Notes under the pieces: model-generated
Seen by the model: only the letters and a program-made list of their open reading frames with translations
Told to the model about the DNA's origin: nothing
Database searches by the model: none
Assembly: GCA_963728205.1 (NCBI GenBank)
Contig: CAVSIV010000006.1
Coordinates: 1,312,001 to 1,376,000, forward strand
Direction: 5' to 3'
DNA length: 64,000 bases
Source: an uncultured Chloroflexia bacterium
Lineage (GTDB): Bacteria; Chloroflexota; Dehalococcoidia; UBA2979
Translations under genes and position numbers: made by a program
Part shown: one piece after another, positions 8,034-54,813 of the stretch
Layout: each line of letters starts with the position of its first letter
How positions within the stretch are numbered: the stretch's first letter is position 1

Positions 8034-8367
8034 GATGTTTCCTCCCCATACCCGGCCCTGGCGGCGTCCGATCCCGTCGGGAGATTCCCTCGTCTACAGC
8101 GGCGCATCCCCCCTTCTCGTGGCGATGAAGCGTGCGCAGTCTCTCACGCAGGATGTGTCCAGGTGTCGCCGAGAGAGGCGCGATACAAACGTTGTTGTCG
8201 ACTCTTCGTCAAGCGCGACAGGGACGACTATCAGAAGAGGTATAGGAATTGCGGGCGAAGTGTACGGACGATGAGCCCGCTCCCGGGCGTGGCTTGTGCT
8301 CCCCGGCTGCTGCGCCGCGCCGTACCATCGGCTCTGCGCAGAGGCGCGAACGGCAGGAGGACGACCG

Positions 8368-9264
8368 ATGGGCAACATCGTCGCAGTCGACGAGCAGACC
8401 GGGCGCAAGTTCTTCCTCGACGAGCCCGACGACCTGCAACCCGGCGAGGAGGTGACGTTCCTCCTGAACCTCCACGGCGGCGGCTCCGTCGGGATGTGGC
8501 AGCGCCAGTACTTTCCCGCCTTCCACTACGCGAACCGGTATCGGCTCGTGATCGCGACGCCGTCGGCGGCGACGAAGGAGCCGTCGCGGCGGTGGGTCGG
8601 GGAGGCGGACGACGCTCACCTGCGCAACATCGTCAACTCCGTGTTCGCGAAGTACGGGCTCGAGCACATCCGCGCGTTCTGGCTTGTCGGGCACTCGCAG
8701 GGCGGGATGACGTCGAACCGGCTGCTTGGCGACGACTTCTTCAAGGAACGCGTCGATGGATGGCTGAGCCTGTCGGGCGGCCGCATCGGGCCGATCGAGA
8801 TCCCGGAGTCGTTCTTCCGTCCGGGCGTGCCGCGGCCGCCGCGGCCGGCCGGCGACAGCGGGCCGCGGCCGGGTCGCGCGAGCACGCCGGATGCGGACAT
8901 CTCGTTCATCTTCGCGAGCGGCGAGCACGAGATGGTCGCTCTGCCGGAGACCTCGCCGTGGGCCGAGAAGTACGGCGCGGGGCCGCGGATGCGCCTGCCG
9001 GACGTGGTCGACGAGGAGCCCGGCCAGATCTACGACACGACGAGCGAAGGCAAGTCGACGCCGGCCTGGGGGCTGCGTGCGCGGCCGGGCACGGCGCAGG
9101 TCTACGCCTACCCCGGAGCGCGCGACGGTCGGGTGATCGCCGACGTCGTGCGGCTGGACAAGGGCCACACCGAGGGCCTGGAGCCGCGCATCACGGAGAC
9201 GCTGATCAGGATGCTGGTCGAGGCGCCGGGCGGAAAAGCGCGCCGCGCAGGCGCCGCCGGCTAG
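8368..9264 (+). CDS. Alpha/beta-hydrolase fold protein
   Basis: LNLHGGGS oxyanion region, GHSQGG nucleophile elbow, C-terminal GH; RBS AGGAGG upstream. Confidence 0.85.
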   Translation: MGNIVAVDEQTGRKFFLDEPDDLQPGEEVTFLLNLHGGGSVGMWQRQYFPAFHYANRYRLVIATPSAATKEPSRRWVGEADDAHLRNIVNSVFAKYGLEHIRAFWLVGHSQGGMTSNRLLGDDFFKERVDGWLSLSGGRIGPIEIPESFFRPGVPRPPRPAGDSGPRPGRASTPDADISFIFASGEHEMVALPETSPWAEKYGAGPRMRLPDVVDEEPGQIYDTTSEGKSTPAWGLRARPGTAQVYAYPGARDGRVIADVVRLDKGHTEGLEPRITETLIRMLVEAPGGKARRAGAAG

Positions 9265-9460
9265 CGCGCGGGCCGGGGCGCGGCGGGCGCGCATCGCCCG
9301 GCATCCCGGCTCGCATCACGGCGCCAGGGGGCCGACCGCCTCGAGATAGTCGCGCAGGGCACGGTCGTAGCGATTCGGATCGAGGTTCCAGGCCACGCGG
9401 ATTGACGGTCCATGGTCGGGACGGCGCGAGTTGCTGCGCGGGCCACCGCGCTGGACGAAG

Positions 9461-11507: not shown

Positions 11508-13290
11508 TTAGGTGTTGAGCCAGTAGTACAGCAGCTGCTCCGTCGGGCCGCCGTAGCCTCGGGTGGCCCGGATGCCGCGCACCTGCGGCTGGTATGCCGT
11601 CCATGCCGTGGAGTGCGCCGGCAACGGCACGTAGTACATCTGCTCATCGCTGATCTTCTGGATCTGCTTCATGTAGTCGGACCGCGTGTTCGGGTCCATC
11701 TCGACGGCCTGCTTCTTCGTCAGATCGTTGATCTTCGGGTCGTTGATCTTGCCGTGGTTGGCAGGGTCGTCGCCGAACTGGCGGTTGAAGTAGCTCCCGG
11801 CCTCGGGGAACGGCGTCTCGATGCCGTAGGCGATGCCGTGGAAGTCGCCGCGGAACGTGTGCGTGATGTACTTCGAGCTGTAGTCCTGCGTCTCCGTCTG
11901 CGGCTGCAGCCCGGCGTCCTTCATCCAGTTGCCGGCCGCCTCCGCGTAGTGCACCCAGACCGAACCGTAGCCGTTGCCCGTGTACTGGTAGGTGAACGGC
12001 TGGCTCGACGACGCACCGACGGCGTCGAACATCTTCTTCGCCTCGGCCGGGTCGAACTTGAAGAACTTCGCCGACGGGCCCTGCTCGGCCGACTTCGGGT
12101 CGAGCCAGAACTTCGAGCCGAACGACGACGGGATGATGTTGTTCCAGTCCATCGACTCGTCGAGACCGGCGGCCTTCAGCTCCTTGACGGCCGACTCGAG
12201 TTCGAGCGTGCCGTCGCGATCGACGGCCATCGACACGCCCTGGCGGAAGCGCGCGTCGCGCCAGGGGGCGTTCGGGTCCATCGCCTCGGGCGAGAAGTAG
12301 ATGAAGTAGAGCAGCGCCCCGTTGCTGCCGGACCACTGCAGGTTGGCGTCCTGCTTCTTCATCGTGAGGATGTCGTCGGCGGCCGGGACGAAGACGTTGA
12401 GGTTGCCGGCCTCGAACTGCGCCTTGCCGTTCGCGTACTCGGGGATGATCTGGCTCCTCGACGCCGTCGAGGTACGGGAGGCCCTTCTCGAAGTACTCGG
12501 GGTGCTTCTTGTAGGACATCTTCGAGGAGACGACGTAGTTCGAGAGGATCCAGGGCCCGGACCCGATCGGCGTTTTCGTGGGGTCGAACCCGCCGTCCGC
12601 CTCCTTCGGCTGGATCCAGAGGATGTTCGCGTCGGCGAGGAACTCGAGAAACGTCGGCGACGGTGCCGGCAGGGTGAACTGCATCGTGTGATCGTCGACG
12701 GCCTTCGCGGTGAGGCCCTTCGGGACGAGGGACAGCGCGGGTGACTTCGGGTCGGTGAGGCGCTGCCACGAGAACATGACGTCCTCGGTCGTGACCTCGC
12801 GGCCGCTGACCGGCGCGACGTTCTGGAACTTCGCGCCCTGCTTGAGCTTCACGGTCCAGGTGATGCCGTCCGGGCTCTCGGCCGACTCCGCGAGGTCGGG
12901 GATGGGCGACTGCTCATACGGGTTCTTGTCGGGCTGCGCGTCGATGCGATAGAGGCGACTGTAGACGTGCGCCGCGACGCCCTTGGCCGAGTAGCTGAGG
13001 TTGGCGTACGGGTCGAGCGAGGTCGGGTCGATGGCGAGCAGGTAGCTGTAGGTGCCGCCGGTCTTCGGGCCCTGCGCGGCGGGGGTCGACGTGGGGGCGG
13101 CGGTCGCGGAGCCCGCCGCCGTCGTTGGTACGGAAGCGGTTGTCGTAGGCGTGCCGTTGCTGCTCGAACCGCAGCCGATGAGGGCGGCGCCGGCGATGCC
13201 GGAGCCCGCGAGCGCGCTGTACCGCAGCAGCGAGCGCCGACCGATGCGACCGCGTGCGGCGCGGCTCCAGTACGAGCGTTGCCGGTCCAT
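11508..13290 (-). CDS. Family 5 ABC solute-binding Tat lipoprotein, copy 2, one-base frameshift at ~12450
   Basis: Highly similar to copy 1 along its length; extra base vs copy 1 at EEP/IIPEY splits it into two ORFs. Confidence 0.9.
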
Positions 13291-13368
13291 TCCGGTGGGT
13301 TCGGTGTTCAACAGGCCCCTCCAGGTCTCGGGGGCGAATCGTGAAGGTGGACGCCCCCGAATTGGCGG

Positions 13369-13399
13369 CATTCATAATGTCGTATGTAATGGGCGTCAA
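13369..13399 (-). promoter_or_regulatory. Conserved promoter/operator of SBP copy 2
   Basis: Minus strand TTGACG-17 bp-TATGAAT, same 14-mer as 11374-11387. Confidence 0.6.
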
Positions 13400-32177: not shown

Positions 32178-32220
32178 CCCGCCGAGCCGGTCACCGGGGG
32201 GCGCCACGAGGTGAAGTGAG

Positions 32221-35200
32221 ATGACGAACCGGCTCTCCGACGCGTGGCGGCGCATCGTGCAGCGCGGGCGGGCGCATCCGCGCGCCATCGTGGCGTCGAG
32301 CGTCGTGCTCACGCTCGTCGTGTGCGGCGGGCTCGCGTTCGCGCTCGCGCGCGGCGGCGGCTCCACGCCGGCGTCGCCCGACACGCTCACGATCGAGCCG
32401 GGCGGCACGGCCGTGCCGCGCCTCGCACCCGTCGTCGTCCACTTCCCGCAGCAGCCGGGTCAGACCGAGGGCGCGCGGCTCGTCTCGCTGCAGCCCGCCG
32501 TGCCCGGCCAGTACGCCTGGCTCGACGACCAGACGCTGCTCTTCCAGCCCGACTACCCCGGCCTCGTGCGCGGCAGCCGCTACACCGTCACCGTCGACGC
32601 CCACGCCGCCGGCCTCACCGCGGACGCCACCCAGGCGTTCACCGTCGAGGGCAAGCTCACCGTCGACCACGTCATCCCGTCGGACGGCAACGTCGACGTG
32701 CCCGCCGGGGCGCACGTGCTCGTGCAGTTCAGCCGCTCCGTCGCGCCGCTCACCACGCTCGACGCGCAGGACGCCACCCCGCCGGTGAAGTTCGACCCGC
32801 CGCTGGCCGGCGCCGGCCGCTGGCTCAACACGTCGCTGTACGAGTTCGTCCCGACCGACCTGCAGCCGAGCACGACCTACCACGTGACCGTCCCCGCCGG
32901 GCTGACCTCGGCGTCGGACGGCGTGCTCGACGCCGACTACTCGTGGTCGTTCAGCACCTACCGGCCGGCCGTCGCGAAGTCCGACCCCGCCGACAACACG
33001 CAGTTCATGGCGCCCGACCAGGTCGTGTCGCTGACGTTCAACCAGCCGATGGACCGCACGTCCATCGAGCACCTGCTCGCCGTCACCGACGCGAGCGGCG
33101 CCGCAGTCGCCGGCGCGATCACGTGGAGCGACCAGGACACCGTCGTGCACTTCACGCCGTCGCAGCCGTGGGCGCTCAGCACGCGCTACACCGTGACCGT
33201 CCCCGCCGGCGTCGCCGGCGCGGCGGGCGGGGCGACCGCGACCGAGCGCACGATCACGTTCCGCACCGTCGACCCGCCGCGCATCGTCTCGACCACGCCC
33301 GCCGACGGCGAGACCGCCGCCGGCCGCTACGGCGTGCAGATCGAGTTCAACAACCCCGTCGACGTCGAGTCGCTGCAGTCGCGCGTCGCGATCAGCGGCA
33401 TCGCGCCCGACGACCTGCAGGTGATGGAGGGTGGGCCGAACGGCATCTACGTCGGCGTAAAGCTCCAGCCGTCGACGCACTACACCGTGAGCATCGCGGC
33501 CGGCGCGGTCGACCGCAGCGGCCAGCCGATCCCCGCGGCATCGTTCGCGTTCACGACCGGCGCGCTGCCGCCGTCGATCTCGTTCGCCGTGCCGTCGTGG
33601 GTCGCCACCTACTCGGCGACCACCGACGCGATCCTCTACGCGCGCGTCACGAACCTCGACCACGCGTCGTTCGCGCTCTACCGGCTGTCGGAGAGCGACG
33701 CGAACGGCATCCTCGACACGAACCAGCTCCCGAAGACCGGTGGCTTGTGGACGCCGCCGTCCGCGCCGATCCGCACGTGGGACGTGCCCGTCGACGGCGG
33801 GCAGGACGCCACCACGCTGATCTCGACGTCGCTCGGCGACGGCGCCCCGCTGCCGGCCGGCGAGTACTACGTGGCGTCGACCAACGGCGCCGTGTACTCG
33901 CAGCTCATGGTCAGCGTGGTCGACACCGCGATGGTGACGAAGCTCTCGCAGGACCAGCTGCTGGTGTGGGCGCTCGACTACGCGACCGGCAAGCCCGTAG
34001 CCGGCGCCACCGTCACCGCGAGCGGCCCCGGCCTGAGCGGAGCCGCCGCCACCGCGCAGACCGACGCCAGCGGCCTCGCCACCTTCACCGTGCCGTCGCC
34101 GCGCGACGTCTCGAACAAGGAGCGCGCGTACGTCGCGCACCTCGACGACCAGGGCCGCCACGGCGTGGCGTCGACGCGCTGGACGAACGGCGCGCAGCCG
34201 TGGCAGCTCGGCCTGCCCGTCGATTACTACCAGCGGCAGTACGTGGCGTACCTCTACACCGACCGGCCGATCTACCGGCCCGGCGAGACCGTCTCGTACA
34301 AGGTGATCGTCCGCGCCGACGACGACGCCAGCTACAGCGTCCCGAGCCCCGCGCCCGCGCTGCAGCTCGTCGTGCACGACCCGCAGTACAGCGACCTCGA
34401 GACGCAGGACGTCACGCTCAACGACCTCGGCACGTGGGGCGGCACGCTGTCGCTCGCCGAGGGCGCCGCCACCGGCCAGTACTCGCTCGAGCTGCGCGTG
34501 ACCGGGACCGGCAACCAGTTCGGGCCGGGCTACGAGAGCATCGGCGGCACCGCGTTCCAGGTCGCCGAGTTCCGCAACCCCGAGTTCCAGGTCGCCGTCA
34601 GCACCGATCGCGATCGCTACGTGAACGGCCAGACCATCGACGGCGCCGCGCAGGCGAACTTCTTCTTCGGCGGCGCGCTCGCCGCCGCGCCGGTGACGTG
34701 GGCCGCGCTCGCCTCGCCGACGTACATCCAGTCGAAGGACTTCCCCGGCTACTCGTTCAACGACTTCGACTACGCCCGCACCACGCAACCGCAGCAGCCG
34801 CTGCGCGCGCAGGGGACCGCGACCACCGACGCCGCCGGCAAGGCGACCTTCCAGGTCCCGGCCGTGCTCCAGGGCGACGAGGGCCCGCAGCAGTTCACGG
34901 TCTCCGCGACCGTCACCGACCAGAACCAGCAGCAGGTCGCCGACAGCACGACCGTCACCGTCGACACCGGCGCCGTCTACCCCGGCGTGAAGCCGGCCGA
35001 GTACATCGCGAAGAGCGGGCAGGCCGCCGAGATCGACGTCGCGTCGGTCGACCCGACCGGCGCCGCGCTGCCGCGGCGCGACGTCGTCGTGCGCGTCTAC
35101 GAGCGCGACTGGGTGACGACGAAGGTGCAGACCGCCGACGGCGGCAAGCACTACGTGAGCGAGCCGAAGGACACGCTCGTCGCGACGCTGCCGGTCACCA

Positions 35201-38200
35201 CCGGCGCCGACGCCACCGCGAGCGTGACCTACACGCCGGCGAAGACCGGCGAGCTGCGCATCGTCGCGTCCGCCACCGATGACAGCGGGCGGACGTCGAA
35301 GTCGTCGACGCAGATCTGGGTCGCCGGCACCGAGTTCGCCTCGTGGCAGGTGCGCAACGACGACGTGCTGCCGCTCGTCGCCGACCGCGACTCGTACGAC
35401 GTCGGCGACACCGCGCAGGTCCTCGTGCCGTCCGCCTTCGAGGGCGCGACCGGGCTCGTCACCATCGAGCGCGGCAAGATCATCTCGAAGACAACGCGCG
35501 CGTTCCCGACGACGGCCGAGACGCTGAGCATCCCGATCACCGACCAGGACGTGCCGAACGTCTTCGTCGGCGTCGTGCTCTACCGCCCGCCGACCGCCGC
35601 CGACCCGCTGCCGCGCTACCAGGTCGGCTACGTGGAGCTGCACGTGTCGACCGCCTCGCGGCACCTCGACGTCACCATCACGCCGTCGACCACGCAGGCG
35701 CAGCCGGGCGACACGGTCGACTACCACGTGCACGTCGCCGACGCCGCCGGCAAGGGCGTGCAGTCGGAGTTCTCGATCGCGGTCGTGGACAAGGCCGTGC
35801 TGTCGCTCGCGCAGGAGGTGGGCCCCGACGGCCTGCACGCGTTCTGGTACGAGCGCGGGCTCGGCGTCGCGACGGCGTCGTCGCTGGCCGTGTCGATCGA
35901 CCGCGCGAACGACGCGATCCCGGAGAGCCAGGCCGGCGGCAAGGGCGGCGGCGGCGAGTCGAACGCGCTGCGCTCGGACTTCCGCAACACCGCCGACTGG
36001 GAGGCGCAGGTCGCGACCGACGCCAACGGCGACGCCACGGTCTCGGTGAAGCTGCCCGACACGCTGACGACGTGGCGCGCCGACGTGCGCGCCGTCGACG
36101 GCGGCACGCGCATCGGCGAGGCGACGGCCGAGGTCGTCTCCACGCAGCCGCTGCTGCTGCGGCCGGCGCTGCCGCGCTTCCTGCGCGTCGGCGACGACGT
36201 CGGCCTGCGCATGCTCGTGACGAACACGACGCAGCAGGCGAGCGACGTCAGCGTGCAGCTGAACGCGGGCGGGGTGAACCTCACGGGCGATGCGACGCAG
36301 ACCGCGCACGTCGCGGCCGGCGAGACCGCCACGCTGGCGTGGAGCGCGCAGGCGAAGGCGGCCGGCACCGCGCACCTCGCCTTCACCGCGACCGGCAGTG
36401 GCGGGCTCTCCGACGGCGTCGCGCTCGACGTGCCGGTGCTCGTCGACCTCACGCCCGAGACCACCGCCACGGGCGGCGAGCTCGACGCGGGGGCGACGTC
36501 GGAGGCGGTCTACCTGCCGGAGTGGGCGGTCACCGACGGCGGCAGCCTCTCGGTCAGCGTGCAGGCGTCGCTCGCCGGCTCGCTCGGCGAGGAGCTGACG
36601 CACCTCGCGCCGCAGCCGTACGAGACGGTGGAACGCAAGGCGAGCCGGGTGGTCGCGACAATCGCCGCGCACCGCGCGGCGGGCGGCTCCGTGGTGGACG
36701 ACCAGGTGCGGTCCGACGTGGCGGCGCTCGTCGGCCTGCAGCACGTCGACGGCGGCTGGGGCTGGTGCGCGGACTGCGACTCGTCGCCGGCGATGAGCGC
36801 GTGGGTGCTCGTCGCGCTGGGCGACGCGCAGGCCGCCGGCGTGAACGTGAACGCCGACGCGGTGGCGCGCGGCCAGACGTACGTGTCGAGCCAGGCGGGG
36901 CAGGCGAGCGACGTCGCCGACCCGATGTCGCCGAACGACCGCGCGTACCTCTACTCCGCGATCGTGCAGGCGGCGGGCGGGGCGACCGGGTCGTCGAGCG
37001 GGGCGGCGACCGCCACCGCGACGGCGACGGCGACCCCCAATTTGCCGCCGCCGCCGGAGGGCAAGCCGACGAAGCCCGGCGCGCCGCCGCCGGTCGGCGT
37101 TGGCCTCGGTGTGACGGCGAACGCGCAGCGCGCGGCGTCGTCGCTGCGCGCGATCGTCGACCAGGACCGCTCGCAGCTCACGAACTGGGGTCGCGCCTGG
37201 GCGCTGCTCGGGCTCGTCGCCGACGACCGGGACGAGGACCAGCAGCCGGTCCAGTCGCTGATCACGGACCTCTCGTCGAGCGCCGTCGCCAGCGCGACCG
37301 GCGCGCACTGGGAGGACCGGCACGGGACGGCGGGCTACCAGCTCGTCGCCGCGATGCAGTCGAACCTCCGCACGACGGCGCTCGTCGTGCAGGCGCTGAG
37401 CGCGTCGCAGCCCGGCCACGCGCTGCTGCCCGAGGCCGTGCGCTGGCTCACGAGCGCGCGCACGGCGAAGGGGTGGAGCACGTCGCTCGAGCGGGCGCAG
37501 GCGGTGCGCGCGCTCTCCGCGTACGCGGTGGCGAGCGGCGAGACCGCCGCGAACTACAGCTACCGGGTGGCGCTCGGCGAGACGTCGCTGCTCGACGGCA
37601 CGTTCAACAAGTCGACCGCGCAGCAGGCGGCGACGAAGCAGGTGCCGCTCACGGACCTGCAGCAGGGTGCCGTGAACAAGCTGGCGTTCACGAAGAGCGG
37701 CAGCGGCCGGCTCTACTACGCGCTCGACCTGCGCTACCTGACGCCGGCCGCGCGCGCGGAGGCGCTGAACCAGGGCTTCGCGGTGTCGCACACGTACACG
37801 CTGCTCGACGCGCAGGAGGCGCCCGTGCAGCAGGCCGCGCTCGGCGACACCGTGCGGGTCGAGGTCACGGTCGTCGTGCCCGCCGACCGCAACTTCGTCA
37901 CGGTCGAGGACGCGCTGCCCGCCGGGCTCGAGCCGGTCGACACGTCGCTCGCGACGACCGACCCGGCGCTGAAGCAGCAGCTCGAGGAGGAGCGGCGGCA
38001 GGCGGCGACGGCCGGCCAGACGGACCAGGTCGCGCCGTGGTACCGCTGGTACTACAGCCCGTGGAGCCACGTGGACGTGCGCGACGACCGGGTCGTGCTC
38101 GCCGCGCAGCGGCTGCCGGCCGGCGTCTACACGTACGTCTACTACGCGCGGGCGACGGCGCCGGGGACGTTCTTCGTCGCGCCGCCGCACGCTGAGGAGA

Positions 38201-38256
38201 CGTACTTCCCGGAGGTGTTCGGGCGCGGGGACAGCGGGACGTTCACGGTGAAGTAG
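32221..38256 (+). CDS. Bacterial alpha-2-macroglobulin with N-terminal Ig-like (SbsA-type) domains
   Basis: TDRPIYRPGE, VAEFRNPEF, AVVDKAVL, RSDFRNTADW, LPDTLTTW, LPRFLRVGD, EDALPAGLEP, AEETYFPEVFGR. Confidence 0.95.
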   Translation: MTNRLSDAWRRIVQRGRAHPRAIVASSVVLTLVVCGGLAFALARGGGSTPASPDTLTIEPGGTAVPRLAPVVVHFPQQPGQTEGARLVSLQPAVPGQYAWLDDQTLLFQPDYPGLVRGSRYTVTVDAHAAGLTADATQAFTVEGKLTVDHVIPSDGNVDVPAGAHVLVQFSRSVAPLTTLDAQDATPPVKFDPPLAGAGRWLNTSLYEFVPTDLQPSTTYHVTVPAGLTSASDGVLDADYSWSFSTYRPAVAKSDPADNTQFMAPDQVVSLTFNQPMDRTSIEHLLAVTDASGAAVAGAITWSDQDTVVHFTPSQPWALSTRYTVTVPAGVAGAAGGATATERTITFRTVDPPRIVSTTPADGETAAGRYGVQIEFNNPVDVESLQSRVAISGIAPDDLQVMEGGPNGIYVGVKLQPSTHYTVSIAAGAVDRSGQPIPAASFAFTTGALPPSISFAVPSWVATYSATTDAILYARVTNLDHASFALYRLSESDANGILDTNQLPKTGGLWTPPSAPIRTWDVPVDGGQDATTLISTSLGDGAPLPAGEYYVASTNGAVYSQLMVSVVDTAMVTKLSQDQLLVWALDYATGKPVAGATVTASGPGLSGAAATAQTDASGLATFTVPSPRDVSNKERAYVAHLDDQGRHGVASTRWTNGAQPWQLGLPVDYYQRQYVAYLYTDRPIYRPGETVSYKVIVRADDDASYSVPSPAPALQLVVHDPQYSDLETQDVTLNDLGTWGGTLSLAEGAATGQYSLELRVTGTGNQFGPGYESIGGTAFQVAEFRNPEFQVAVSTDRDRYVNGQTIDGAAQANFFFGGALAAAPVTWAALASPTYIQSKDFPGYSFNDFDYARTTQPQQPLRAQGTATTDAAGKATFQVPAVLQGDEGPQQFTVSATVTDQNQQQVADSTTVTVDTGAVYPGVKPAEYIAKSGQAAEIDVASVDPTGAALPRRDVVVRVYERDWVTTKVQTADGGKHYVSEPKDTLVATLPVTTGADATASVTYTPAKTGELRIVASATDDSGRTSKSSTQIWVAGTEFASWQVRNDDVLPLVADRDSYDVGDTAQVLVPSAFEGATGLVTIERGKIISKTTRAFPTTAETLSIPITDQDVPNVFVGVVLYRPPTAADPLPRYQVGYVELHVSTASRHLDVTITPSTTQAQPGDTVDYHVHVADAAGKGVQSEFSIAVVDKAVLSLAQEVGPDGLHAFWYERGLGVATASSLAVSIDRANDAIPESQAGGKGGGGESNALRSDFRNTADWEAQVATDANGDATVSVKLPDTLTTWRADVRAVDGGTRIGEATAEVVSTQPLLLRPALPRFLRVGDDVGLRMLVTNTTQQASDVSVQLNAGGVNLTGDATQTAHVAAGETATLAWSAQAKAAGTAHLAFTATGSGGLSDGVALDVPVLVDLTPETTATGGELDAGATSEAVYLPEWAVTDGGSLSVSVQASLAGSLGEELTHLAPQPYETVERKASRVVATIAAHRAAGGSVVDDQVRSDVAALVGLQHVDGGWGWCADCDSSPAMSAWVLVALGDAQAAGVNVNADAVARGQTYVSSQAGQASDVADPMSPNDRAYLYSAIVQAAGGATGSSSGAATATATATATPNLPPPPEGKPTKPGAPPPVGVGLGVTANAQRAASSLRAIVDQDRSQLTNWGRAWALLGLVADDRDEDQQPVQSLITDLSSSAVASATGAHWEDRHGTAGYQLVAAMQSNLRTTALVVQALSASQPGHALLPEAVRWLTSARTAKGWSTSLERAQAVRALSAYAVASGETAANYSYRVALGETSLLDGTFNKSTAQQAATKQVPLTDLQQGAVNKLAFTKSGSGRLYYALDLRYLTPAARAEALNQGFAVSHTYTLLDAQEAPVQQAALGDTVRVEVTVVVPADRNFVTVEDALPAGLEPVDTSLATTDPALKQQLEEERRQAATAGQTDQVAPWYRWYYSPWSHVDVRDDRVVLAAQRLPAGVYTYVYYARATAPGTFFVAPPHAEETYFPEVFGRGDSGTFTVK

Positions 38257-45062: not shown

Positions 45063-46352
45063 ATGGTGACGCAGCAGCCCGCCGTCGACCATGAGGCAAT
45101 CGCGCGCGTCTTCCGCGAGGAGTCGGCGCGCGCGGTCGCCTCACTGGTGCGGGTCTGCGGCGACGTCGACCTCGCGGAGGAGGCGGTGCAGGAGGCGTTC
45201 GAGGTCGCCCTGCGCCGCTGGCCGTCCGCCGGGGTCCCCCCGAGCCCGGCGGGCTGGATCATCACCACCGCCAAGCACCGCGCCATCGACTGGCTCCGCC
45301 GCGAGCGCACGCGCGACGACCGCCACCGCCGCGCCGCCGCGCTGCGGGCCCAGCGGCGAACGACGACTCAGCGGCGTCGGATACGACGCCGACCTCCGAC
45401 CTGATCGGCGACGGCACCCCGATGGACGACGACCGCCTGCGCCTCGTCTTCACCTGCTGCCACCCCGCGCTCGCCGTCGAGGCGCAGCTCGCGCTCACGC
45501 TGCGGCTGATCGCCGGGCTGCGCACGCCCGAGATCGCGCGGGCGTTCCTCGTGCCGGAGGCGACGATGGCGCAGCGCCTCGTGCGCGCGAAGGCGAAGAT
45601 CCGCGACGCGCGGCATCCCCTACCGCGTCCCGCGCGACGCCGACCTGCCCGAGCGGCTGCGCTCGGTGCTGGCCGTCGTCTACCTGGTGTTCAACGAGGG
45701 CTATGTCGCGACCGCCGGCGCGTCGCTGGTGCGCGACGAGCTGTGCGGCGAGGCGATCCGCCTGGGGCGGCTGCTGGTCGAGCTGATGCCCGACGAGCCC
45801 GAGGCGCGCGGCCTGCTGGCGCTGATGCTGCTCACGGAGTCGCGCCGGCCCGCGCGCACCGCCGCCGACGGGTCGCTCGTGCGGCTCGCCGACCAGGACC
45901 GCGCGCGCTGGGACCGCGCCCTCATCGACGAGGGCCACGCGCTCGTGCGCGCCTGCCTGCGGCAGAACCGCCCCGGCCCCTACCAGCTGCAGGCCGCGAT
46001 CGCGGCCGTGCACGCCGACGCGCCGACCGCCGCCGCCACCGACTGGCGGCAGATCGTCGCGCTCTACGACCGGCTGCTCGCGCTCCAGCCGACGCCCGTC
46101 GTCGCGCTCAACCGCGCCATCGCCGTCGCCGAGGTCGACGGCCCCGCCGCCGCGCTCGCGCTCGTCGACGCGCTGGCGCTCGAGGGCTACCACCCGTGGT
46201 GGGCGACGCGCGGCGATCTGCTCGAGCGGCTGGGGCGGCGCGAGGAGGCGGCGGAGGCGTTCGCCCGGGCGGCGGAGATGACGGAGAACGAGGCGGAGCG
46301 GCGGTACCTCGAGGGGCGGGCGCGATTCCGTCCTAAGGGCTGGAGCCAGTAG
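45063..46352 (+). CDS. ECF42-type sigma-70 factor (DUF6596/TPR extension), frameshifted at ~45350-45410 and ~45612
   Basis: AEEAVQEAF, DDRLRLVFTCCHPAL, AQRLVRAKAKI, YLVFNEGY, QDRARWD, GPYQLQAAIAAVH spread over three ORFs; follows DGPF gene. Confidence 0.9.
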
Positions 46353-46365
46353 AACCTGTGTTGAG

Positions 46366-46421
46366 TTACCGGATACAGCCAGTAAGAATATTCTTGATTT
46401 ACTGGATGCAGCCTGTATGAT
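46366..46421 (+). promoter_or_regulatory. Promoter with tandem palindromic operators for mobile mystery operon
   Basis: TTACCGG-ATACAG-CCAGTAA (46366-46385), TTACTGG-ATGCAG-CCTGTAT (46399-46418); -35 TTGATT 46394, -10 TATGAT 46416. Confidence 0.65.
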
Positions 46422-46428
46422 AGAAGTC

Positions 46429-46905
46429 ATGTCACGTAGCGATAACACGAGAGCGCGTGCCCGACTCGACGGCCGCCTGGCGAAGCTCAGCTCACTCCGA
46501 ACCGAGCCGCGTCCGCACAGGGGATGGATTCGCGCCATCCGCGACGCGCTCGGTATGTCCGCCAGGGAGTTGGCCGCCCGCATGGGCGTCAGTCAACAGA
46601 CGATTCCCGATATCGAGCACAGCGAACTTCGCGACACAATCAAGCTCGACACGCTGAGGCGCGCTGCGGACGCTCTTGACTGTGACCTGGTCTATTTCCT
46701 GATTCCCCGCAGCAGCCTCGACGAGACGATCCGCGCGCAGGCTCGTCGCAAGGCCAGTGATCACCTCGAGCGCGTGGCCCATCACAGTCGCCTCGAAGAC
46801 CAGGCGCTCACCGCGGACGACACCAACGCGGAGATCGACGCGCTGGCATCGACGCTCGCCGACCGGAGAGGGCTGTGGTCGGAGTCCTCATCGCCACGGC
46901 GATAG
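46429..46905 (+). CDS. Mobile mystery protein A (XRE-HTH)
   Basis: PHRGWIRAIRDALGMS..ELAARMGVSQ, TLRRAADALDCDLVYFLIPR, HSRLEDQ, LW; probable leaderless start 46429. Confidence 0.9.
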   Translation: MSRSDNTRARARLDGRLAKLSSLRTEPRPHRGWIRAIRDALGMSARELAARMGVSQQTIPDIEHSELRDTIKLDTLRRAADALDCDLVYFLIPRSSLDETIRAQARRKASDHLERVAHHSRLEDQALTADDTNAEIDALASTLADRRGLWSESSSPRR

Positions 46906-46908
46906 GCA

Positions 46909-47496
46909 ATGACGGGCCCGCTCCTCCCTGTTGGCGACGGGCACACGGCCCTGTCCGATGAGGACGGAGAGGGGCTCATTCCCTCGTACATTGCCACGCG
47001 CGCGGATCTCTTCGACGCGGAAGAGCGCAACATCGCGAAGGCGATGCTCCGCCGCGCGCCGACAATCGACCAGCTTCTCGACGACCGGTATCTGCGCGGT
47101 CTCCATCGCGCGATGTTTGGCGATGTCTGGAAGTGGGCGGGCCGGTACCGCCTGAAGGAAACGAACATCGGCATCGCACCTGCTCAGGTGGCGGTGGCAG
47201 TCCGGGACCTGGTCGACGATGCGCGCGTGTGGGTCGCGTCGGCCACGTATGCGCCGGACGAACTCGCGGTTCGCTTTCATCACCGACTGGTGGCCATCCA
47301 TCCATTCCCAAACGGCAACGGACGCCACGGACGGGTTGCTGCCGACTACCTGGTGCAAGGCCTTGGCAAAGAAGCGTTCACATGGGGCGCCACTCGTGAT
47401 GCCAGCACGGAAGACCTGCGCGCGGAGTACAGGCGCGCGCTACAGCGAGCCGACCAGAATGACATCGCGGATCTTCTCGTGTTCGCGCGGTCCTGA
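46909..47496 (+). CDS. Mobile mystery protein B (Fic domain)
   Basis: LHRAMFGDVWKWAGRYR, RFHHRLVAIHPFPNGNGRHGR, ends FARS. Confidence 0.92.
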   Translation: MTGPLLPVGDGHTALSDEDGEGLIPSYIATRADLFDAEERNIAKAMLRRAPTIDQLLDDRYLRGLHRAMFGDVWKWAGRYRLKETNIGIAPAQVAVAVRDLVDDARVWVASATYAPDELAVRFHHRLVAIHPFPNGNGRHGRVAADYLVQGLGKEAFTWGATRDASTEDLRAEYRRALQRADQNDIADLLVFARS

Positions 47497-47669
47497 GCGG
47501 GCCGGCGGCCTCGGCGTCGGGGTCGCGCCACCACGCGGGCGCGCCGTAGCCGGCGTCCTGGTGCGGGGACTGGATGTCGACGTTGACGCTCTTACGTTCG
47601 CCGACGGGACGGCTACGGACGCTCACCGCGGCTCGTCCGCGTCGTAGAAGGTCGGGAGCGCGCCAGCGA

Positions 47670-48941
47670 TCAGCTCGATCGGTACGGCACGCGCGCGCGG
47701 GCTCCGAGGTCAGGGTGTCGCCGCCCGGGCTGGCGAGCTGTCGTTCGAGCGACGTGAACGCCTCGATCAGCTCGGGCGCCTCGAACGCCCGGTTGCGCCG
47801 GCCGACGTTGATCTGCTGAGCACGCCGCGCCTCGCGAGCCGCCGGATCGCCTTGTTCGTCGCCTCGAAGGTGCGGCCGATCAGGCCGGCGGCCGTGGCAG
47901 CCGTCAGGACCGGGGCGCGCGGGCAACGCGTCGATCAGCGGAACGCCGCGGAGTGCCGCGCGCCGCCCGACGCCCTCCCGCCACGCCTCCTGCAGCGCGC
48001 GCACGCGCTCCTCGAACGCGCTCGCGTCGCCACGGCTCGACTGCAGGCGGTCGCGAAGAGCGCGATCCAGCGGTTGACGCCCTCGTCCGCCTGCGGCGGT
48101 CCGGGGGCCGTCATAGCGGGTCGCGGTCAAGCCGCCGACATAGTCCCGCGAGAGCGTGGCCAGGACCAGCGAGACGGGCGGGAGGAACCAATCGGCGAGC
48201 CCGCGGCGTCTCAGGACGAGGTCGATCAGGGCGCGACCGGTCCGGCCGTTGCCGTCGGCGAACGGGTGGATCGTCTCGAACTGCGCGTGCGCGACGGCCG
48301 CCTGCGCGACGGCGGGCAGCGCGTCGTCGTTGGCGAGAAGGCGCAGAGGTCATGCAGGAACTCGGGGACGCGCTCGGGCGGCGGCGGGACGAAGGCCGCG
48401 GAGCACGGGTTGAAGGCACTGCCGCCGATCCAGTTCTGCTCCGTCGCGGACCGCCGCCGGCCGCCTGCTCCTGCCCGGTCCCCGCCAGCAGCCGCGGTGG
48501 ATCTCGCAGCAGGTCCTCCACCGGCAAGTGGCTGTCGCGTGCACCGCGTCTCCGTCGCCCAGAGCATCGCCTCGATGTTCCCCAGGACCTCCAGCGCGGT
48601 GACATCGCCGCGGGTCCTCACCGATGCCGGCGGCAACTCCGCCCTCAGCAGCCGCCGTCCCCCGACCTCGAGACCCTCGATGCGCGACGAAGCCACCGAC
48701 TCGGCGCGCAGCAGGAGCCGCGCGAGCGCCTCGGTGTCCACGAGCGCCTCGGCGGAGCTGGTTCAGCCGGACCGAGCGCCGCCTCGGCGTCGGCGACGTC
48801 CGCCGCGACGTCGCCGTCCAGCGAGAACCGTCGCCCCGCAACGGGATCCGGGACGTAGGTTTCGTAGTCGCAGGGGCGCCGGTCGCGGCGGGTGAGGCCT
48901 TCCGGCGAGGGTTCCCAGCGGTGACGTTCGAAGCTTGCCAC
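47670..48941 (-). pseudogene. Fic family protein with C-terminal HTH, multiply frameshifted as sequenced
   Basis: YETYVPDP, LLRAESVASSRIEG, QNWIGGSAFNPC, FETIHPFADGNGRTGR (~48233-48280), GRRNRAFEA in successive frames. Confidence 0.85.
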
Positions 48942-49099: not shown

Positions 49100-51223
49100 T
49101 CAAGGCCACGTCCTGATGAGTTCCGCCCAGGCCGGCTGAGCGCCTTTCATGACGGCGTGGAGTGCGCGTTCTTGTACTCGCCTCGTGCGCTGCCCGCGCC
49201 GGCTCCCGCTTGTGATCGTGACGTGGGCGGAATCGGACTGGATCGGCAGAATGATGCACTAGCTCAACCACTTACTCGCGACGGGGAGTGCCCGTCGGAA
49301 TACTCCGTTGCGAACCCAGTTCCCCCCATCCGGGACAGGTCGCCGAGCGGGAGTGGCAGTTGCGTACGCGAGCGCGAGCTTCGCGTGCGACCGGAGTAGC
49401 CCTTAGCAAGGAGCTCGTTGAAGACATCTAGCGCCAGCACCCGTGCGGTCGGGTCACTCAGCGCCGGATCTTGGAAACGCAGGCACCGCCCGCTCCCCCC
49501 TCAGGCAAAGTCCGGTCCGAGCGCGGCGCGCCATCGAATGGGGGATCGCGATCCTGTCCCGGTCACGGAAGAAGCGTGCGAGGACGGTTGGGCGGCTAGC
49601 GCGTCGACCGCGCAGCCCGACAGAGAACAGAAAATCGAACACCGCTGAGTTGGCGGGAAGATCGCGGCGGCCGCCAGGACCCACCCAGCCGAGAGTGCTG
49701 TGGCGGCGAGCAGGAGAGCTGCGTAGCGGGCAAGGTCTGGCTCCGCGTGTTGTGTGAGTTCCTCGAGCAGAAGCCGGAATCCGGTCGAGTCGACGCGGAT
49801 CTCCACTGAACACGCGATGGATTGCCTGACTAGCCGCGAGCGAGTTGTCGGCAGCTTTAATCAACGCATTGCCCGTTCTGTCGATCGCCGCCTCGCCCTG
49901 AACAACAAACTCGGGAGACCGACAGCCGTGCGCCCCGCTCTACGCACTCCGACTCTGCACTCCGTAGTGCTGCCCGATAGCGGCGAACGTCCGAAGTTGG
50001 CTCGCAGACATCGAGCGCATCTGTCAGGTCGGCGACGGTGAGTGAGTCGGGCGGCCGGGCCGCTAACGCGGTCTCGATCGCGTCCGCTGCGACGACATGC
50101 ATAGGGAACCGCTGGAGGTATTACCCCCACCACCCACGAGAGGTGGGGGTGGTCGACCAAGAGCCACTCGTCGCAGTGTGAAGGATGTCTTTGCGAGGAT
50201 TCAGACGGAGCAGTGAGTAGCGGAACTTCGAGTCGCTCTCAACTGTCCACGCTGGGCCGGTCCACTTCACCGATGAGCGGAACGCCGTGCGCAGTTCGCG
50301 CTGGGCGCGCCGCTCGTCCGAGCCGGGCGCCTCTAGGCGCAGTAGACCGCTCGCGACGCCCTCGTCGAAGTCCTCCTCCCGGTCCACCCGGCGAACCGTC
50401 TCGCTCCAGCCCTTCGGGGTAAGTCCGAGCCGACGTGCACCGACTTCCAGGAGACGGCAGCGCCCTTCGAACGTCTCGGCCCTCCTCTCCGAGCACGACG
50501 ATGTCATCGACGTACCTGGCGTACGTGACTGGACCGACGTCAACTTCATCAATCTCGAACAGCAAGAGTTCAGCAAGGATGCTGGAGGTCTCAGGTCCTT
50601 TGGGGGAGGCCGAACCCTCGTTGGCTATTCGGTGTCTCGCTCGTCCATCGCTCGAGGCACGCTAGCAAGAGGTTAGAAATCTTGAGAGATGTACCGCGAC
50701 AGGCGCCGCCTCAAGAGCGAATGGTCGACCGTATCGTAGAAGGACACAAGGTCGAAATCACCGCGGTATCGGAGATCCTTCCCGGAACGACTTCTTGAGG
50801 GTGTCTATATAGTGTCGATATCCAACGCGCCATGGCTTGAAGAATTGATTTGTTTGACGCCCAGCTAATATCCCGCTGAAGCGTCGCGTATAGGCCAGCC
50901 GAGTTTGTTGTGATGCGACCTGATCGCCAACGAGATTGCCAATCGCTTGGTAGACGTGCTGGTCGCGCAACGTGAGCATCGTGATTGGTAGGAGAAGGCC
51001 GCCAGACGCCTTCGGCATGAACTGAACAACCGGCGTCGTTGGCGCGAAGACTTCCCGGCATACATGCAACGCCAGCGCATGGGACACTTCCGGGCGCTCC
51101 GGCTAGGTATGCAGAGAGCATCGGTTCGTAGAGCGATTTGTAGTCAAGATTCGCGCCGAACTGCATCCTCTGGAGTGCCAGGTCGAAGTTCGTGTCGCGC
51201 GTAAATCGAGCCTCGAGAGCCAT
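49100..51223 (-). CDS. Reverse transcriptase (UG/Abi-like) with long C-terminal extension, multiply frameshifted as sequenced
   Basis: Manual stitching: FMPKASG..LPITML..DQHVYQAI; DFDLVSFYDTVDH (~50720-50760); GFGLPQ/GPETSSILAE (~50570-50615); YARYVDDI (YVDD 50503-50514); ends AWAELIRTWP*. Confidence 0.85.
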
Positions 51224-51321: not shown

Positions 51322-51830
51322 ATGACTGATGAACGGCTTCCGTCGCGTGTCCCCGACTATGAGCCTCTCCTCACGGAGGGAATGCACTACCGCACGCTCG
51401 ACGAGCTGCGGGACCGCTGCGTTGCCACCTTCCCCCTTTCGTCAACCCGGCCCGGGCTGATGGCGAACCTTGACTCCGCGATTGCTAGACTGAATTCTGC
51501 CGGTGTGCCGGGTGAGGTGTTGATCGATGGCAGTTTCCTCACGGCGAAGATTGATCCCGCTGACGTCGACCTCGTGCTCCGAACGTCGGCGATGTGGTTT
51601 GAGAACGATGCGACGCCGGAGCAACGCGAGGCCGTCGAGCGATTCGACGCGGGCCTGCGGGACTCCGAGCACCTTGACGCGTACTACTTCTGCATTGGCC
51701 GGCGGAGCATCGGGTATGGGCACTCGGAGAAGCCGAGCGACAGAGCTGGACGAGGACGTTCGGCTTCAGCCGTGAGCCGCACCGGACGCCCAAAGGCATC
51801 GCCATAGTCAGGCTGACGGCAACACCATGA
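51322..51830 (+). CDS. Pol-beta-like nucleotidyltransferase (DUF6932-like), frameshift ~51690
   Basis: LIDGSFLTAKIDPADVDLV (GS..DxD), third Asp LDAY; shifted frame gives WTRTFGFSREPHRTPKGIAIVRL. Confidence 0.75.
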
Positions 51831-52767
51831 GCGAGCTCTCGTCAATCCAGGAAGACCTCATCGCGGCTCGTGAGCGCCTCTTCGCCATCAATCGCGCGAT
51901 CGCCCAGCACCCCGACTTCGGCAGCCCTCGTCTCTATGGCGCGCTCAGTTCGTCATCGGGCGGAGGCTCTGGAGCGCGAATTCTTGGACGCGGCGTCGGA
52001 TGCGGGTGTCGATGTCTGCCGTTACCAAGTGTTCTTGGCCGACGATGGTCCGCCGAGAGTTCAAGCGGTCAGCCGGGTTATAGATACATTCCAAACGTTG
52101 GTCACGACGGTTTATGCATCAATTCAGAATCGTGCGACGCGGGGTGTGGCCGGTCCGCTTCCGAAGGAGGCGGTAGACGCCACGTCATTCGGGCTTGGGT
52201 ACGTGTTCGTTGGATGCCGTTGGCATGGCGCTGACGATTCGGAACGAGCGGAACCTCTTCGGCGACTCTGCTCTCGACGACGCCATGGGCTTGGTGTTCG
52301 AGATGGCGAGATCAGACGCGCCGGCGCAACTTGCGAGCTTCGCCCAGCGGTTGGGTCCGCGGACCGTTCGCGCGCTCTATAACTGGACACGCTCACATCA
52401 GGCGAATGGGGTCGGCGTCGATATTCAGTGGCGCCGCGCGGAGACGCTGCGCGCGCGGCTCCTCATGCAGACGCCCGAGATAGGCAAGCTAGTGGCCGCC
52501 ATCGAGGCAGCCGGTGAACTGACCAGCGAATCGGTCACGCTGTCGATTCTATTGGTTGGAATTGATGCGGAGCGGAGCACATTCCATGCGCGGACGGATA
52601 ACGGAGACGGAATGACAGGAACTATTGGTGCGGATCTATCGCTTAGTAATCCCGCCCACGTTCCGGGACGCTACACGGCACATTTAACGCGACAGGTATA
52701 CCGACAATATTCGTATGAGGAAGATGTCGTTACGTGGGCGCTCGACAGCCTCGAGCCAGTGTCCTAG
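51827..52767 (+). CDS. Hypothetical ~310-aa partner of the nucleotidyltransferase, frameshifts ~51930 and ~52205
   Basis: ATGA overlap with upstream gene; three ORF pieces (51827, 51870, 52195) join into one plausible protein. Confidence 0.7.
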
Positions 52768-53235: not shown

Positions 53236-54813
53236 ATGATCTTCGCGGAAGACGTCCAGAAGTCGTTCGGCGGCGACGATGTGCTCGCCGGTGTCACCTT
53301 CTCCATCGGGGACGGCGAGCGCGTGGGGCTCGTCGGGCCCAACGGGAGCGGGAAGTCCACGCTCCTGCGCATCATCGCGGGGCAGTCGGCGCCCGACCGC
53401 GGCCGCGCCGGCCACCGCGGCGGCGACCTGGAGTTCCTGCGCCAGGAGGCGGGGCTCGACGACGACCTCCCGCTCGTCGAGGAGATGTGGAAGGCGTTCC
53501 CCGAGGCCGTCGCCGTCCAGGCGCAGCTCGACGCCGTCGCGGGTCGCCTCGAGCGCGGCGAGGGCGACCTCGACGCGCTGATCGAGGAGCAGGCCCGCCT
53601 CTTCGAGCGCTTCGAGGCGCTCGACGGCTACCGCGTCGAGAAGCGCATCGGCCGCGTGCTCGCCGGCCTCGGCTTCGCCCCCACCGACCACGAGCGCCCC
53701 TGCGGCGATTTCTCCGGTGGCTGGCAGATGCGCGTCGCGCTGGCGAAGGTGCTCGTCGACCGCCCGCAGCACATCCTGCTCGACGAGCCGACGAACCACC
53801 TCGACGCCGCCGCGCGCGACTGGCTCGGCGACGAGCTGTCGGAGTACCCGGGCACGGTGCTGCTCGTCACGCACGACGGCGCGTTCATGGACTACGTGGT
53901 CACGCGCGTGATCGAGCTGCGCGACGGCGGCGCCGAATCGTACACCGGCAACTACAGCGACTACCAGCGCCAGAAGGCCGAGCGCATCCACGCGGTCGAC
54001 CAGGCTGCGGCACGCCAGGAGCGCGAGCTGACGCGCCAGCAGAAGTTCATCAACCGCTTCCGCGCGACGGCGACGAAGGCCACCGCGGTGAAGAGCCGCG
54101 AGAAGGCGGTCGCGCGCGTGCAACGCGTGGAGCGCATCCGCGAGGAGGGCGAGGTCCACTTCCGGCTGGAGTCGGCCGGGCGGACGGAGCTGGACGTGCT
54201 GCGGGTCGAGCACGTGGGCTACGAGTACGAGGACGGCCACCCGGTGCTGGTCGACGTGAACCTGCACGTCGAGCGCGGGCAGAAGGTCGTGCTGATCGGC
54301 CCGAACGGCGGGGGAAAGTCGACGCTGCTGCGGATCCTCGCGGGGCGGCTCGAGCCGCTCGAGGGCCTGGTGGAGTGGGCGCCGCGGGCGCGTCGCGGCT
54401 ACTACGACCAGCACCAGGACGAGGCGCTCGAGCGCTCGCGGACGGTGCTGGAGGAGGTGCGCACGGCGGCGGGCCCGGAGCGGCCGGACGGCGCGCTGCG
54501 CGGCGTGCTCGGCCGCTTCCTCTTCACCGGCGACGACGCGATGAAGCCGGTGGCGGTGCTCTCCGGCGGCGAGCGCAGCCGGGTGGCGCTGGCGAAGTTC
54601 CTGATCCAGCCGTCGAACGTGCTGCTGCTCGACGAGCCGACGAACCACCTGGACATCACGACGCGCCGCAAGCTCGTCGACGCACTGGACGCGTACGACG
54701 GCACGATCATCTGCGCGAGCCACGACGAGGCGATCGTGGACAAGGTGGCGACGCGCGTGTTCGAGGTGCAGGCAGGGGAGGTCCGGGAGCTCGAGGAGCG
54801 GCGGCGGCTGTAG
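53236..54813 (+). CDS. ABC-F family ATP-binding protein
   Basis: Two NBDs: GPNGSGKST/FSGGWQMR/LLDEPTNHLD and GPNGGGKST/LSGGERSR/LLDEPTNHLD; no TM domain. Confidence 0.95.
   Translation: MIFAEDVQKSFGGDDVLAGVTFSIGDGERVGLVGPNGSGKSTLLRIIAGQSAPDRGRAGHRGGDLEFLRQEAGLDDDLPLVEEMWKAFPEAVAVQAQLDAVAGRLERGEGDLDALIEEQARLFERFEALDGYRVEKRIGRVLAGLGFAPTDHERPCGDFSGGWQMRVALAKVLVDRPQHILLDEPTNHLDAAARDWLGDELSEYPGTVLLVTHDGAFMDYVVTRVIELRDGGAESYTGNYSDYQRQKAERIHAVDQAAARQERELTRQQKFINRFRATATKATAVKSREKAVARVQRVERIREEGEVHFRLESAGRTELDVLRVEHVGYEYEDGHPVLVDVNLHVERGQKVVLIGPNGGGKSTLLRILAGRLEPLEGLVEWAPRARRGYYDQHQDEALERSRTVLEEVRTAAGPERPDGALRGVLGRFLFTGDDAMKPVAVLSGGERSRVALAKFLIQPSNVLLLDEPTNHLDITTRRKLVDALDAYDGTIICASHDEAIVDKVATRVFEVQAGEVRELEERRRL

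Follow-up and report, generated by a model that had tools for sequence, protein, structure and literature searches.

Reverse transcriptases (RTs) of the UG/Abi type that are fused to helical repeats make up Class 1 of these enzymes, and the group UG19 was placed in this class by the survey that named it (Mestre et al. 2022, PMC9226505). As described in that survey, UG19 has an extra domain, either fused to the RT (UG19-large) or encoded by a neighbouring gene (UG19-small), for which a 'very distant homology with HEPN' was noted, and its role in defence was predicted from individual loci. The groups that the survey gives as assayed are UG12, UG10, UG7 and UG28, with UG19 not among them, and no experimental work on UG19 was found in the literature searched. 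The name DRT10, as the literature uses it, belongs to UG17. Class 1 UG/Abi enzymes are described as untemplated synthesisers (PMC13174585). AbiA of Lactococcus lactis (PDB 8OZ7; Gapinska et al. 2024, PMC11077055), the closest solved architecture, shows the same order of an RT-like, a helical and an all-helical HEPN domain, and its palm motif, RYVDD, is like that of the UG19 family. According to its structural report, AbiA makes protein-primed, untemplated DNA, priming on Tyr298/Tyr303 of a linker loop, and its HEPN domain is enzymatically inactive, is needed for polymerase activity and forms a dimer. Here we analyse an RT gene of UG19 type in a stretch of 64,000 nucleotides (the window) from the contig CAVSIV010000006.1 of an uncultured Chloroflexia bacterium. 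Judged from its sequence, this locus holds the whole of a UG19-large gene, that is the gene of a Class 1 UG/Abi RT associated with defence by prediction, and its reading frame is broken at many points.

The gene starts with an ATG at 51223 and ends with a stop codon at 49100-49102, and was first seen as a 'hidden' reading frame of about 700 codons:

49100..51223, minus strand: complete RT gene of UG19 type, interrupted by 11-16 small frameshifts and by 1-3 apparent stops in frame

Its closest relative, P0001, is a protein of 700 residues from an assembly labelled Dehalococcoidia. In a frameshift-aware protein-to-DNA alignment, residues 1-696 of P0001 map onto 51223-49106, which agrees with the length first proposed; 332 of 694 residues are identical (48%), with 14 frameshifts and 3 in-frame stops. 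The gene measures 706 codons as compared to 700 in P0001 and is therefore complete in length, but at least 11 corrections of frame are needed to read it. A profile built from 107 relatives (alignment A1) gave 16 frame changes and one stop when penalties were low, and 11 frame changes and three stops when they were high. The first eight breaks were identical across all runs (~51094-51097, 50775, 50675-50681, 50599, 50457, 50164, 50121 and 49912-49915), and every break consists of one or two bases, most being +1, with no larger deletion. The apparent stops in the tail include a TAG at 49259-49261 and a TGA at 49501-49503. Within the span of the gene, no frame on its strand stays free of stops for more than 185 codons, and tblastn with five full-length relatives covers the locus in three frames. 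When the same frameshift-aware test was applied to the control relative L013, no frame correction was required. A scripted read-through of the window gene, with an X at each break, scored 522 bits (E 1e-160) against the profile of 107 relatives. Since at least 11 frame corrections are needed, the protein cannot be made from the gene as sequenced: as it is written in the assembly, the gene is untranslatable and non-functional, and 'broken' describes it better than 'hidden'.

The RT motifs quoted in the original prediction were all found within the gene (51223 to 49100, minus strand), in the expected order and spread over all three frames:

50998-51015, minus strand: PKASGG, RT motif
50980-50991, minus strand: LPIT, RT motif
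50721-50756, minus strand: FDLVSFYDTVDH, RT motif
50600-50617, minus strand: GFGLPQ, RT motif, with a frame change between it and GPETS
50584-50598, minus strand: GPETS, RT motif
50503-50514, minus strand: YVDD, catalytic RT motif
49408-49431, minus strand: LDVFNELL, tail motif
49223-49237, minus strand: SDSAH, tail motif
49103-49132, minus strand: AWAELIRTWP, C-terminal end, followed by the stop at 49100-49102

The palm and finger residues D156, D238 and D239 are retained. The arginine of motif 1, R77, which is invariant in the family (107 of 107 relatives), is replaced by Leu in the window copy, where one extra codon is also present; no Arg codon occurs in any frame of this stretch.

The assignment to UG19 comes from profile searches. 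Four pieces of the window gene match RT_UG19 (PDLC03756) best among the PADLOC models, with E values of 7.6e-20, 2e-8, 1.3e-3 and 3.6e-11, and the profile positions that they cover are consecutive (48-145, 144-176, 177-205 and 204-253). A scan of the organism's own genome with RT_UG19 matched the same three places at the locus and no second copy. With full-length relatives, RT_UG19 was the best model in ten out of ten cases (E 1e-86 to 1e-151), the next being RT_UG21 (1e-36 to 1e-51); it was ahead of the other PADLOC RT models by about 50 orders of magnitude for the relatives and by 17 for a window piece. Pfam was much less sensitive. In fact, RVT_1 was found in one of the 12 stop-free pieces of the window RT, with an E value (0.056) that falls short of the cut-off, PF00078 gave 13 bits over the whole genome, also under the cut-off, and RVT_1 alone was seen on the full-length relatives. 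An exhaustive phmmer search of 1.84 billion proteins with a piece of 114 residues (50761-51102) returned 166 at E<=0.001; the majority have about 700 residues and are matched at residues 50-150. In a word-indexed search restricted to longer proteins, none of 159 candidates scored with this piece. The window copy and P0001, 48% identical to each other, form a divergent branch with at most 37% identity to the other relatives. The best match being RT_UG19, a group named in 2022, the window RT is no member of an undescribed clade. The proposal of an uncharacterised clade therefore has to be given up. Mestre et al. 2022 (PMC9226505), as far as their account of UG19 goes, had already noted the very distant likeness of its fused domain to HEPN.

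The domain layout was deduced from a model of the whole P0001 protein, obtained with AlphaFold2 on alignment A1 (predicted local distance difference test score, pLDDT, 93.2; predicted template modelling score, pTM, 0.92). Three domains make up the model (RT, helical and C-terminal), residues ~340-530 being all helices. Transferred to the window gene, it gives:

50200..51223 (boundary approximate), minus strand: RT fingers and palm domain, with PKASGG/LPIT, RDQHVYQAI, FDLVSFYDTVDH, GFGLPQ/GPETS and YVDD
49620..50199 (boundaries approximate), minus strand: helical (alpha-repeat) domain of Class 1 UG/Abi type, placed from the P0001 model, with several frame changes
49103..49619, minus strand: C-terminal HEPN-like domain, with LDVFNELL, SDSAH and the apparent TAG and TGA

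The helical repeats that mark Class 1 are thus seen on the P0001 model, to the corresponding part of which the window is aligned. The C-terminal domain is fused, as in the large variant, the P0001 alignment reaching residue 696 of 700 at 49106. An RT of UG/Abi type with a helical C-terminal half, as originally proposed, is what both the profile match and the model describe. The window gene has the RT, helical repeats and fused C-terminal domain reported for UG19 (PMC9226505), and it differs from the rest of the family in being untranslatable and in lacking two arginines, the invariant one of motif 1 and that of the HEPN-like motif.

Comparison of the P0001 model with solved structures points in the same direction. 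Residues 11-499 fit DRT6 (9wy8; Z 17.9, 429 residues aligned), DRT4 (9vdo; Z 17.1), UG15 (9l9s; Z 15.1), AbiK (7r06; Z 14.9) and Abi-P2 (7r08; Z 14.1). DRT4/UG15, DRT6/UG12, AbiK and Abi-P2 therefore share an RT and a helical domain with the model, but they are without the extra C-terminal domain of 200 residues, and their PADLOC models lie far below RT_UG19 on the relatives. AbiA is the sole solved chain that aligned over residues 1-700 (Z 17.6, 509 aligned, root-mean-square deviation 6.5). The identity in sequence between AbiA and UG19 is 9% or less, and the AbiA model was not among the best 25 of the 44-55 PADLOC matches obtained per relative.

The tail was also modelled alone, from an alignment of 20 relatives in which D, N, H, R, H and T positions are invariant (pLDDT 91.6). 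This model matches mainly HEPN proteins, namely 2hsb (Z 9.2), AbiA (8.8, 142 aligned), Roquin (8.3), 5yep and 7ae2 (7.5), and further 1ufb, 1wol, Csm6, HepS and 4nqf; 11 of the top 14 rows are HEPN or HEPN-containing, and all these Z values are below ~13, a range that is not decisive for helical bundles. Foldseek with the tail model gave no match at E<=0.001, the best being the HEPN domain of sacsin (E 1.6). At the level of sequence, the family tail carries an LDxFNE helix and the motif H-x2-R-x6-H, the R occurring in 103 of the 107 relatives and the H in 105. Taken together, these data suggest that the predicted UG19 tail resembles HEPN at the family level. The window copy has Pro and Ile at the columns of the family Arg and His and keeps the His of SDSAH; its tail shows no HEPN Rx4-6H, the Arg being absent there in every frame. 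In P0001 the Arg is displaced by one position. The HEPN-like tail that had been proposed is supported for the family by the motif and the matches to HEPN and AbiA folds, and the remark that its Arg is missing in the window copy is correct.

On these grounds UG19-large may be envisaged as an AbiA-like system in a single chain, composed of an RT, helical repeats and a HEPN-like tail. By analogy with AbiA, AbiK and DRT4, the enzyme would make untemplated, protein-primed single-stranded DNA upon phage infection. The fused HEPN-like domain would either support the polymerase via dimerisation, as in AbiA, or be an RNase effector. The HEPN domain of AbiA is reported as inactive, whereas the UG19 tail retains H-x2-R-x6-H at the family level; this strong conservation raises the possibility that the tail is active, unlike its counterpart in AbiA. 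Candidate priming residues in UG19 are Y28 (96 of 107 relatives) and S290 (72 of 107), the latter in a linker modelled with low confidence. No non-coding RNA partner would be expected, because Rfam finds nothing at the locus and only 98 bases separate the RT gene from the next gene upstream. This gap is indeed too short for a long non-coding RNA, as originally noted.

How the breaks arose is a separate matter. The reading that we favour, at roughly even chances, is that most of the 11-16 breaks are indel errors of the consensus sequence, in which case the gene would be whole, or almost so, in the organism. The breaks would stem from an indel-prone assembly in a strain-variable cassette of lower GC content; a low number of reads over such a cassette would account for a local stretch with the quality of raw reads. 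The genome is assembled in six contigs and is 89% complete by marker genes. Ordinary genes of the window are interrupted as well. The family III CoA-transferase gene (CoA_transf_3, 4134-5557, plus strand) has profile positions 1-238 and 236-365 in two frames, with the change near 5060. The gene for a solute-binding protein of an ATP-binding cassette (ABC) transporter (SBP_bac_5, 11511-13371, minus strand) has positions 2-152 and 154-365 in two frames that abut at 12452-12457; here one base in a short run is duplicated, and the break looks the same as those that could be pinned in the RT gene. The extracytoplasmic function (ECF) sigma domain and the DUF6596 tail at 45095-46349 (plus strand) lie in two frames, probably because of a frameshift near 45620. 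The homopolymer context of the breaks does not discriminate, since in vivo slippage and sequencing error both produce it.

A segmentation of the whole genome by the phase of GC content at third codon positions (GC3) detected 1458 direct junctions between frames on the same strand, 251 of which were flagged because the frame of the upstream gene has no stop codon within 90 bases. Five of the flagged junctions lie inside the window, two of them being clear frameshifts by Pfam and one a probable frameshift. A shift of +1, the direction that the scan favours, was found in 201 of the 251. The scan is blind to dense clusters and low-GC genes, the flagged rate is a lower bound, and within the RT gene the phase signal is too weak at 60-66% GC. 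The read-through of the RT gene provides the other line of evidence. With a profile made without P0001, it scored 501 bits as compared to 569 for intact P0001, despite containing 17 X. Of the 51 columns with a conservation of 90% or more it retains 46, where family members retain 41-51 (median 50), and at three of the five columns that it misses P0001 is also off the consensus, twice with the same residue. Moreover, two of the three stops vanish when nearby frames are read, and the family motifs ERRC and VH are thereby restored. As far as these alignments tell, the read-through carries almost no substitution damage. Frameshifts in ordinary genes, combined with a read-through that scores like an intact relative, point to consensus indel errors.

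Several observations weigh against this explanation. The density of breaks in the RT gene, about one per 130-190 bases, is ~80-100 times the flagged genome-wide rate (about one per 16 kb), and the densest cluster found elsewhere by the GC3-phase scan is of 3 junctions in ~2.5 kb. In the same window, the helix-turn-helix (HTH) and Fic pair described below is open over 1.2 kb, and a frame of 2014 codons (32215-38256) is open too. The change of the motif 1 Arg to Leu with an extra codon and the absence of the HEPN Arg in all frames count as substitutions and not as indels. Five other public assemblies (L027, L030, L055, L034 and L032) contain UG19 genes in need of 1-4 frame corrections, which makes a real decay of UG19 genes plausible. 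Furthermore, the mechanism set out above for the family is carried over, by analogy, from the AbiA and DRT4 papers only. The copy in L027 also has a TAA. In another relative, L024, the UG19 match is interrupted, the read-through giving residues 1-480 (8001-9416) and 491-714 (12026-12683) about 2.6 kb apart, as if by an insertion.

An independent copy of the gene was sought. In 40 relatives and in the organism's own genome, searches with the RT DNA gave only the locus itself and two chance matches (28 and 37 bases); tblastn of the RT against plasmids gave no match; among metagenomes, 181 pattern matches were obtained and none was confirmed as a close relative. As no near-identical independent copy was found, error and decay are not told apart in this way.

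The genes that surround the RT bear on the question. The GC content of the window is 0.70-0.81 over most of its length and dips to 0.61-0.66 at 49-53 kb. The RT lies in a small island of defence-type genes, and the neighbourhood is as follows:

46300..47496, plus strand: HTH gene and Fic/Doc gene (PADLOC candidate PDC-S04), both open
47381..48762, minus strand: SoFic-like Fic gene directly downstream of the RT, in two frames with a break at ~48331-48334
51322..52767, plus strand: PADLOC candidate pair divergent from the RT, PDC-M63A (DUF6932) at 51322-51807 and PDC-M63B (partial, frame 52177-52764)
53236-54813: ABC-F gene, intact

In the SoFic-like gene, positions 43-172 of the PADLOC SoFic profile match at 48334-48753 and positions 173-247 at 48107-48331 in a different frame; by Pfam, Fic_N and the C-terminal half of Fic are likewise in separate frames. 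The HTH and Fic/Doc pair matches Pfam HTH_3 (E 9e-12) and Fic (E 1.8e-12), and PDC-S04 with E 2e-17. For PDC-M63A, one frame holds profile positions 4-86 (E 3e-19), and positions 123-150 match weakly in a second frame (51678-51827; E 0.005). Only positions 133-230 of 309 of the PDC-M63B profile were detected, and the region 51827-52767 is covered by three overlapping frames. PDC-M63A and PDC-M63B are probably frame-broken too. A match to PDC-M63B at E<=1e-5 occurs in one of 401 genomes of the phylum, in a protein that has no similarity to that of the window, and a word-indexed protein search for relatives of PDC-M63B returned only the window's own protein.

Two genomes of the genus have an orthologue of the ABC-F gene with 80-83% DNA identity (on contigs G001:C65 and G003:C87), and the rest of the window between 38 and 60 kb has no match on these two contigs. 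On this comparison of sequences, gene order around ABC-F is not conserved within the genus; with only ABC-F matching, the borders of the island could not be set by synteny. No tRNA and no flanking repeats were found by the RT locus.

The surroundings of 12 intact relatives were examined by scanning 51 of the 99 neighbouring frames listed for them. Restriction-modification, TIR, Fic or Lit-type genes adjoin seven of the 12, and no partner is shared by more than two of the loci. Defence-type neighbours with no recurrent partner fit a stand-alone gene that travels in defence islands. At two related loci, both of Acidobacteriota type, a DUF4172-Fic gene lies directly upstream of UG19 on the same strand (6784-7944 in L018 and 371-1525 in L020), and in the window a Fic gene is directly downstream; two out of 12 are too few for an association. 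The organism's genome has a second, better preserved SoFic-like gene on contig C6 (491190-492137, minus strand; locus L009), which matches profile positions 52-358 with 201 bits and has one TGA inside the match.

The rival explanation that survives best, a serious possibility which we rate a little below even, is that the gene is a real pseudogene: a horizontally acquired UG19 RT that is decaying together with its neighbours in a defence island being lost, so that the breaks are in the cell's DNA. The damage matches the limits of the gene: its 2.1 kb hold 11-16 frameshifts, whereas genes beside it and core genes are open. Three neighbouring defence-type genes (SoFic, PDC-M63A and PDC-M63B) also look broken. 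The loss of R77 and of the HEPN-like Arg and His fits a decaying gene, as do the frameshifted UG19 copies of the five other assemblies, and the TAG at 49259-49261 persists in four out of four profile alignments. The GC content of 0.61-0.66 at 49-53 kb, as compared to 0.72-0.78 elsewhere, is consistent with foreign DNA. In the 40 relatives searched, the RT DNA was absent from the matches. On the other hand, neutral decay is expected to add several substitutions per indel, as mutation-accumulation work indicates, and bacterial pseudogenes tend to lose DNA. The read-through is only 68 bits below the intact relative, its 17 X included; where P0001 follows the consensus, the read-through has a single unique loss; and no deletion exceeds two bases. 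In addition, the assembly breaks ordinary genes in the same manner.

It is very improbable that the gene belongs to another class of RT, such as those of group II introns, retrons, diversity-generating retroelements (DGRs) or CRISPR-associated systems, or that its motifs stand in order by chance. By fold, residues 1-333 of the P0001 model are indeed nearest to the G2L4, group II intron and DGR RTs (Z 20-22.7), a result that is usual for any bacterial RT core. RT_UG19 is far ahead of every other PADLOC RT model, and the 370 residues that follow the palm form a helical repeat and a HEPN-like domain, not a maturase or a thumb. Between 45000 and 54000 no Rfam family was found at E<=1, the repeat pairs by the RT are only short, GC-rich, chance-like matches with none that is DGR-like, and the space upstream is just 98 bases. 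The absence of retron, group II intron and DGR features, which had been remarked from the sequence, is thus borne out. Programmed frame changes, by ribosomal frameshifting or RNA editing, are scarcely credible: the protein signal is preserved across frames and nothing further speaks for them, while the shifts number at least 11, are of two kinds and lie in unrelated sequence contexts, a single frame suffices for the control L013 and for most of the top 25 relatives, which lie in other genomes, and the same type of break occurs in unrelated ordinary genes of the assembly.

The window locus adds one damaged copy to a family that was catalogued in 2022. For this assembly, with its frameshifts in ordinary genes, findings of 'hidden' or 'split' genes and of 'pseudogenes' need checking against the reads. 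For the family, the evidence from structure and motif lends more weight to the 'very distant HEPN homology' noted for the UG19 tail, and AbiA, as the closest solved architecture, offers a concrete plan for first experimental work on UG19 using an intact relative. If the preferred reading of the breaks as assembly errors is followed to its end, which is a tentative and rather doubtful step, this high-GC bacterium would have a working, very divergent UG19-large enzyme, and UG19-large would more generally be an AbiA-like system in a single chain, present across many environmental phyla, with the HEPN-like domain possibly acting as an RNase effector. In that case the branch formed by P0001 and the window copy, in which the Arg is shifted or missing, would be a natural test of the need for the H-x2-R-x6-H centre.

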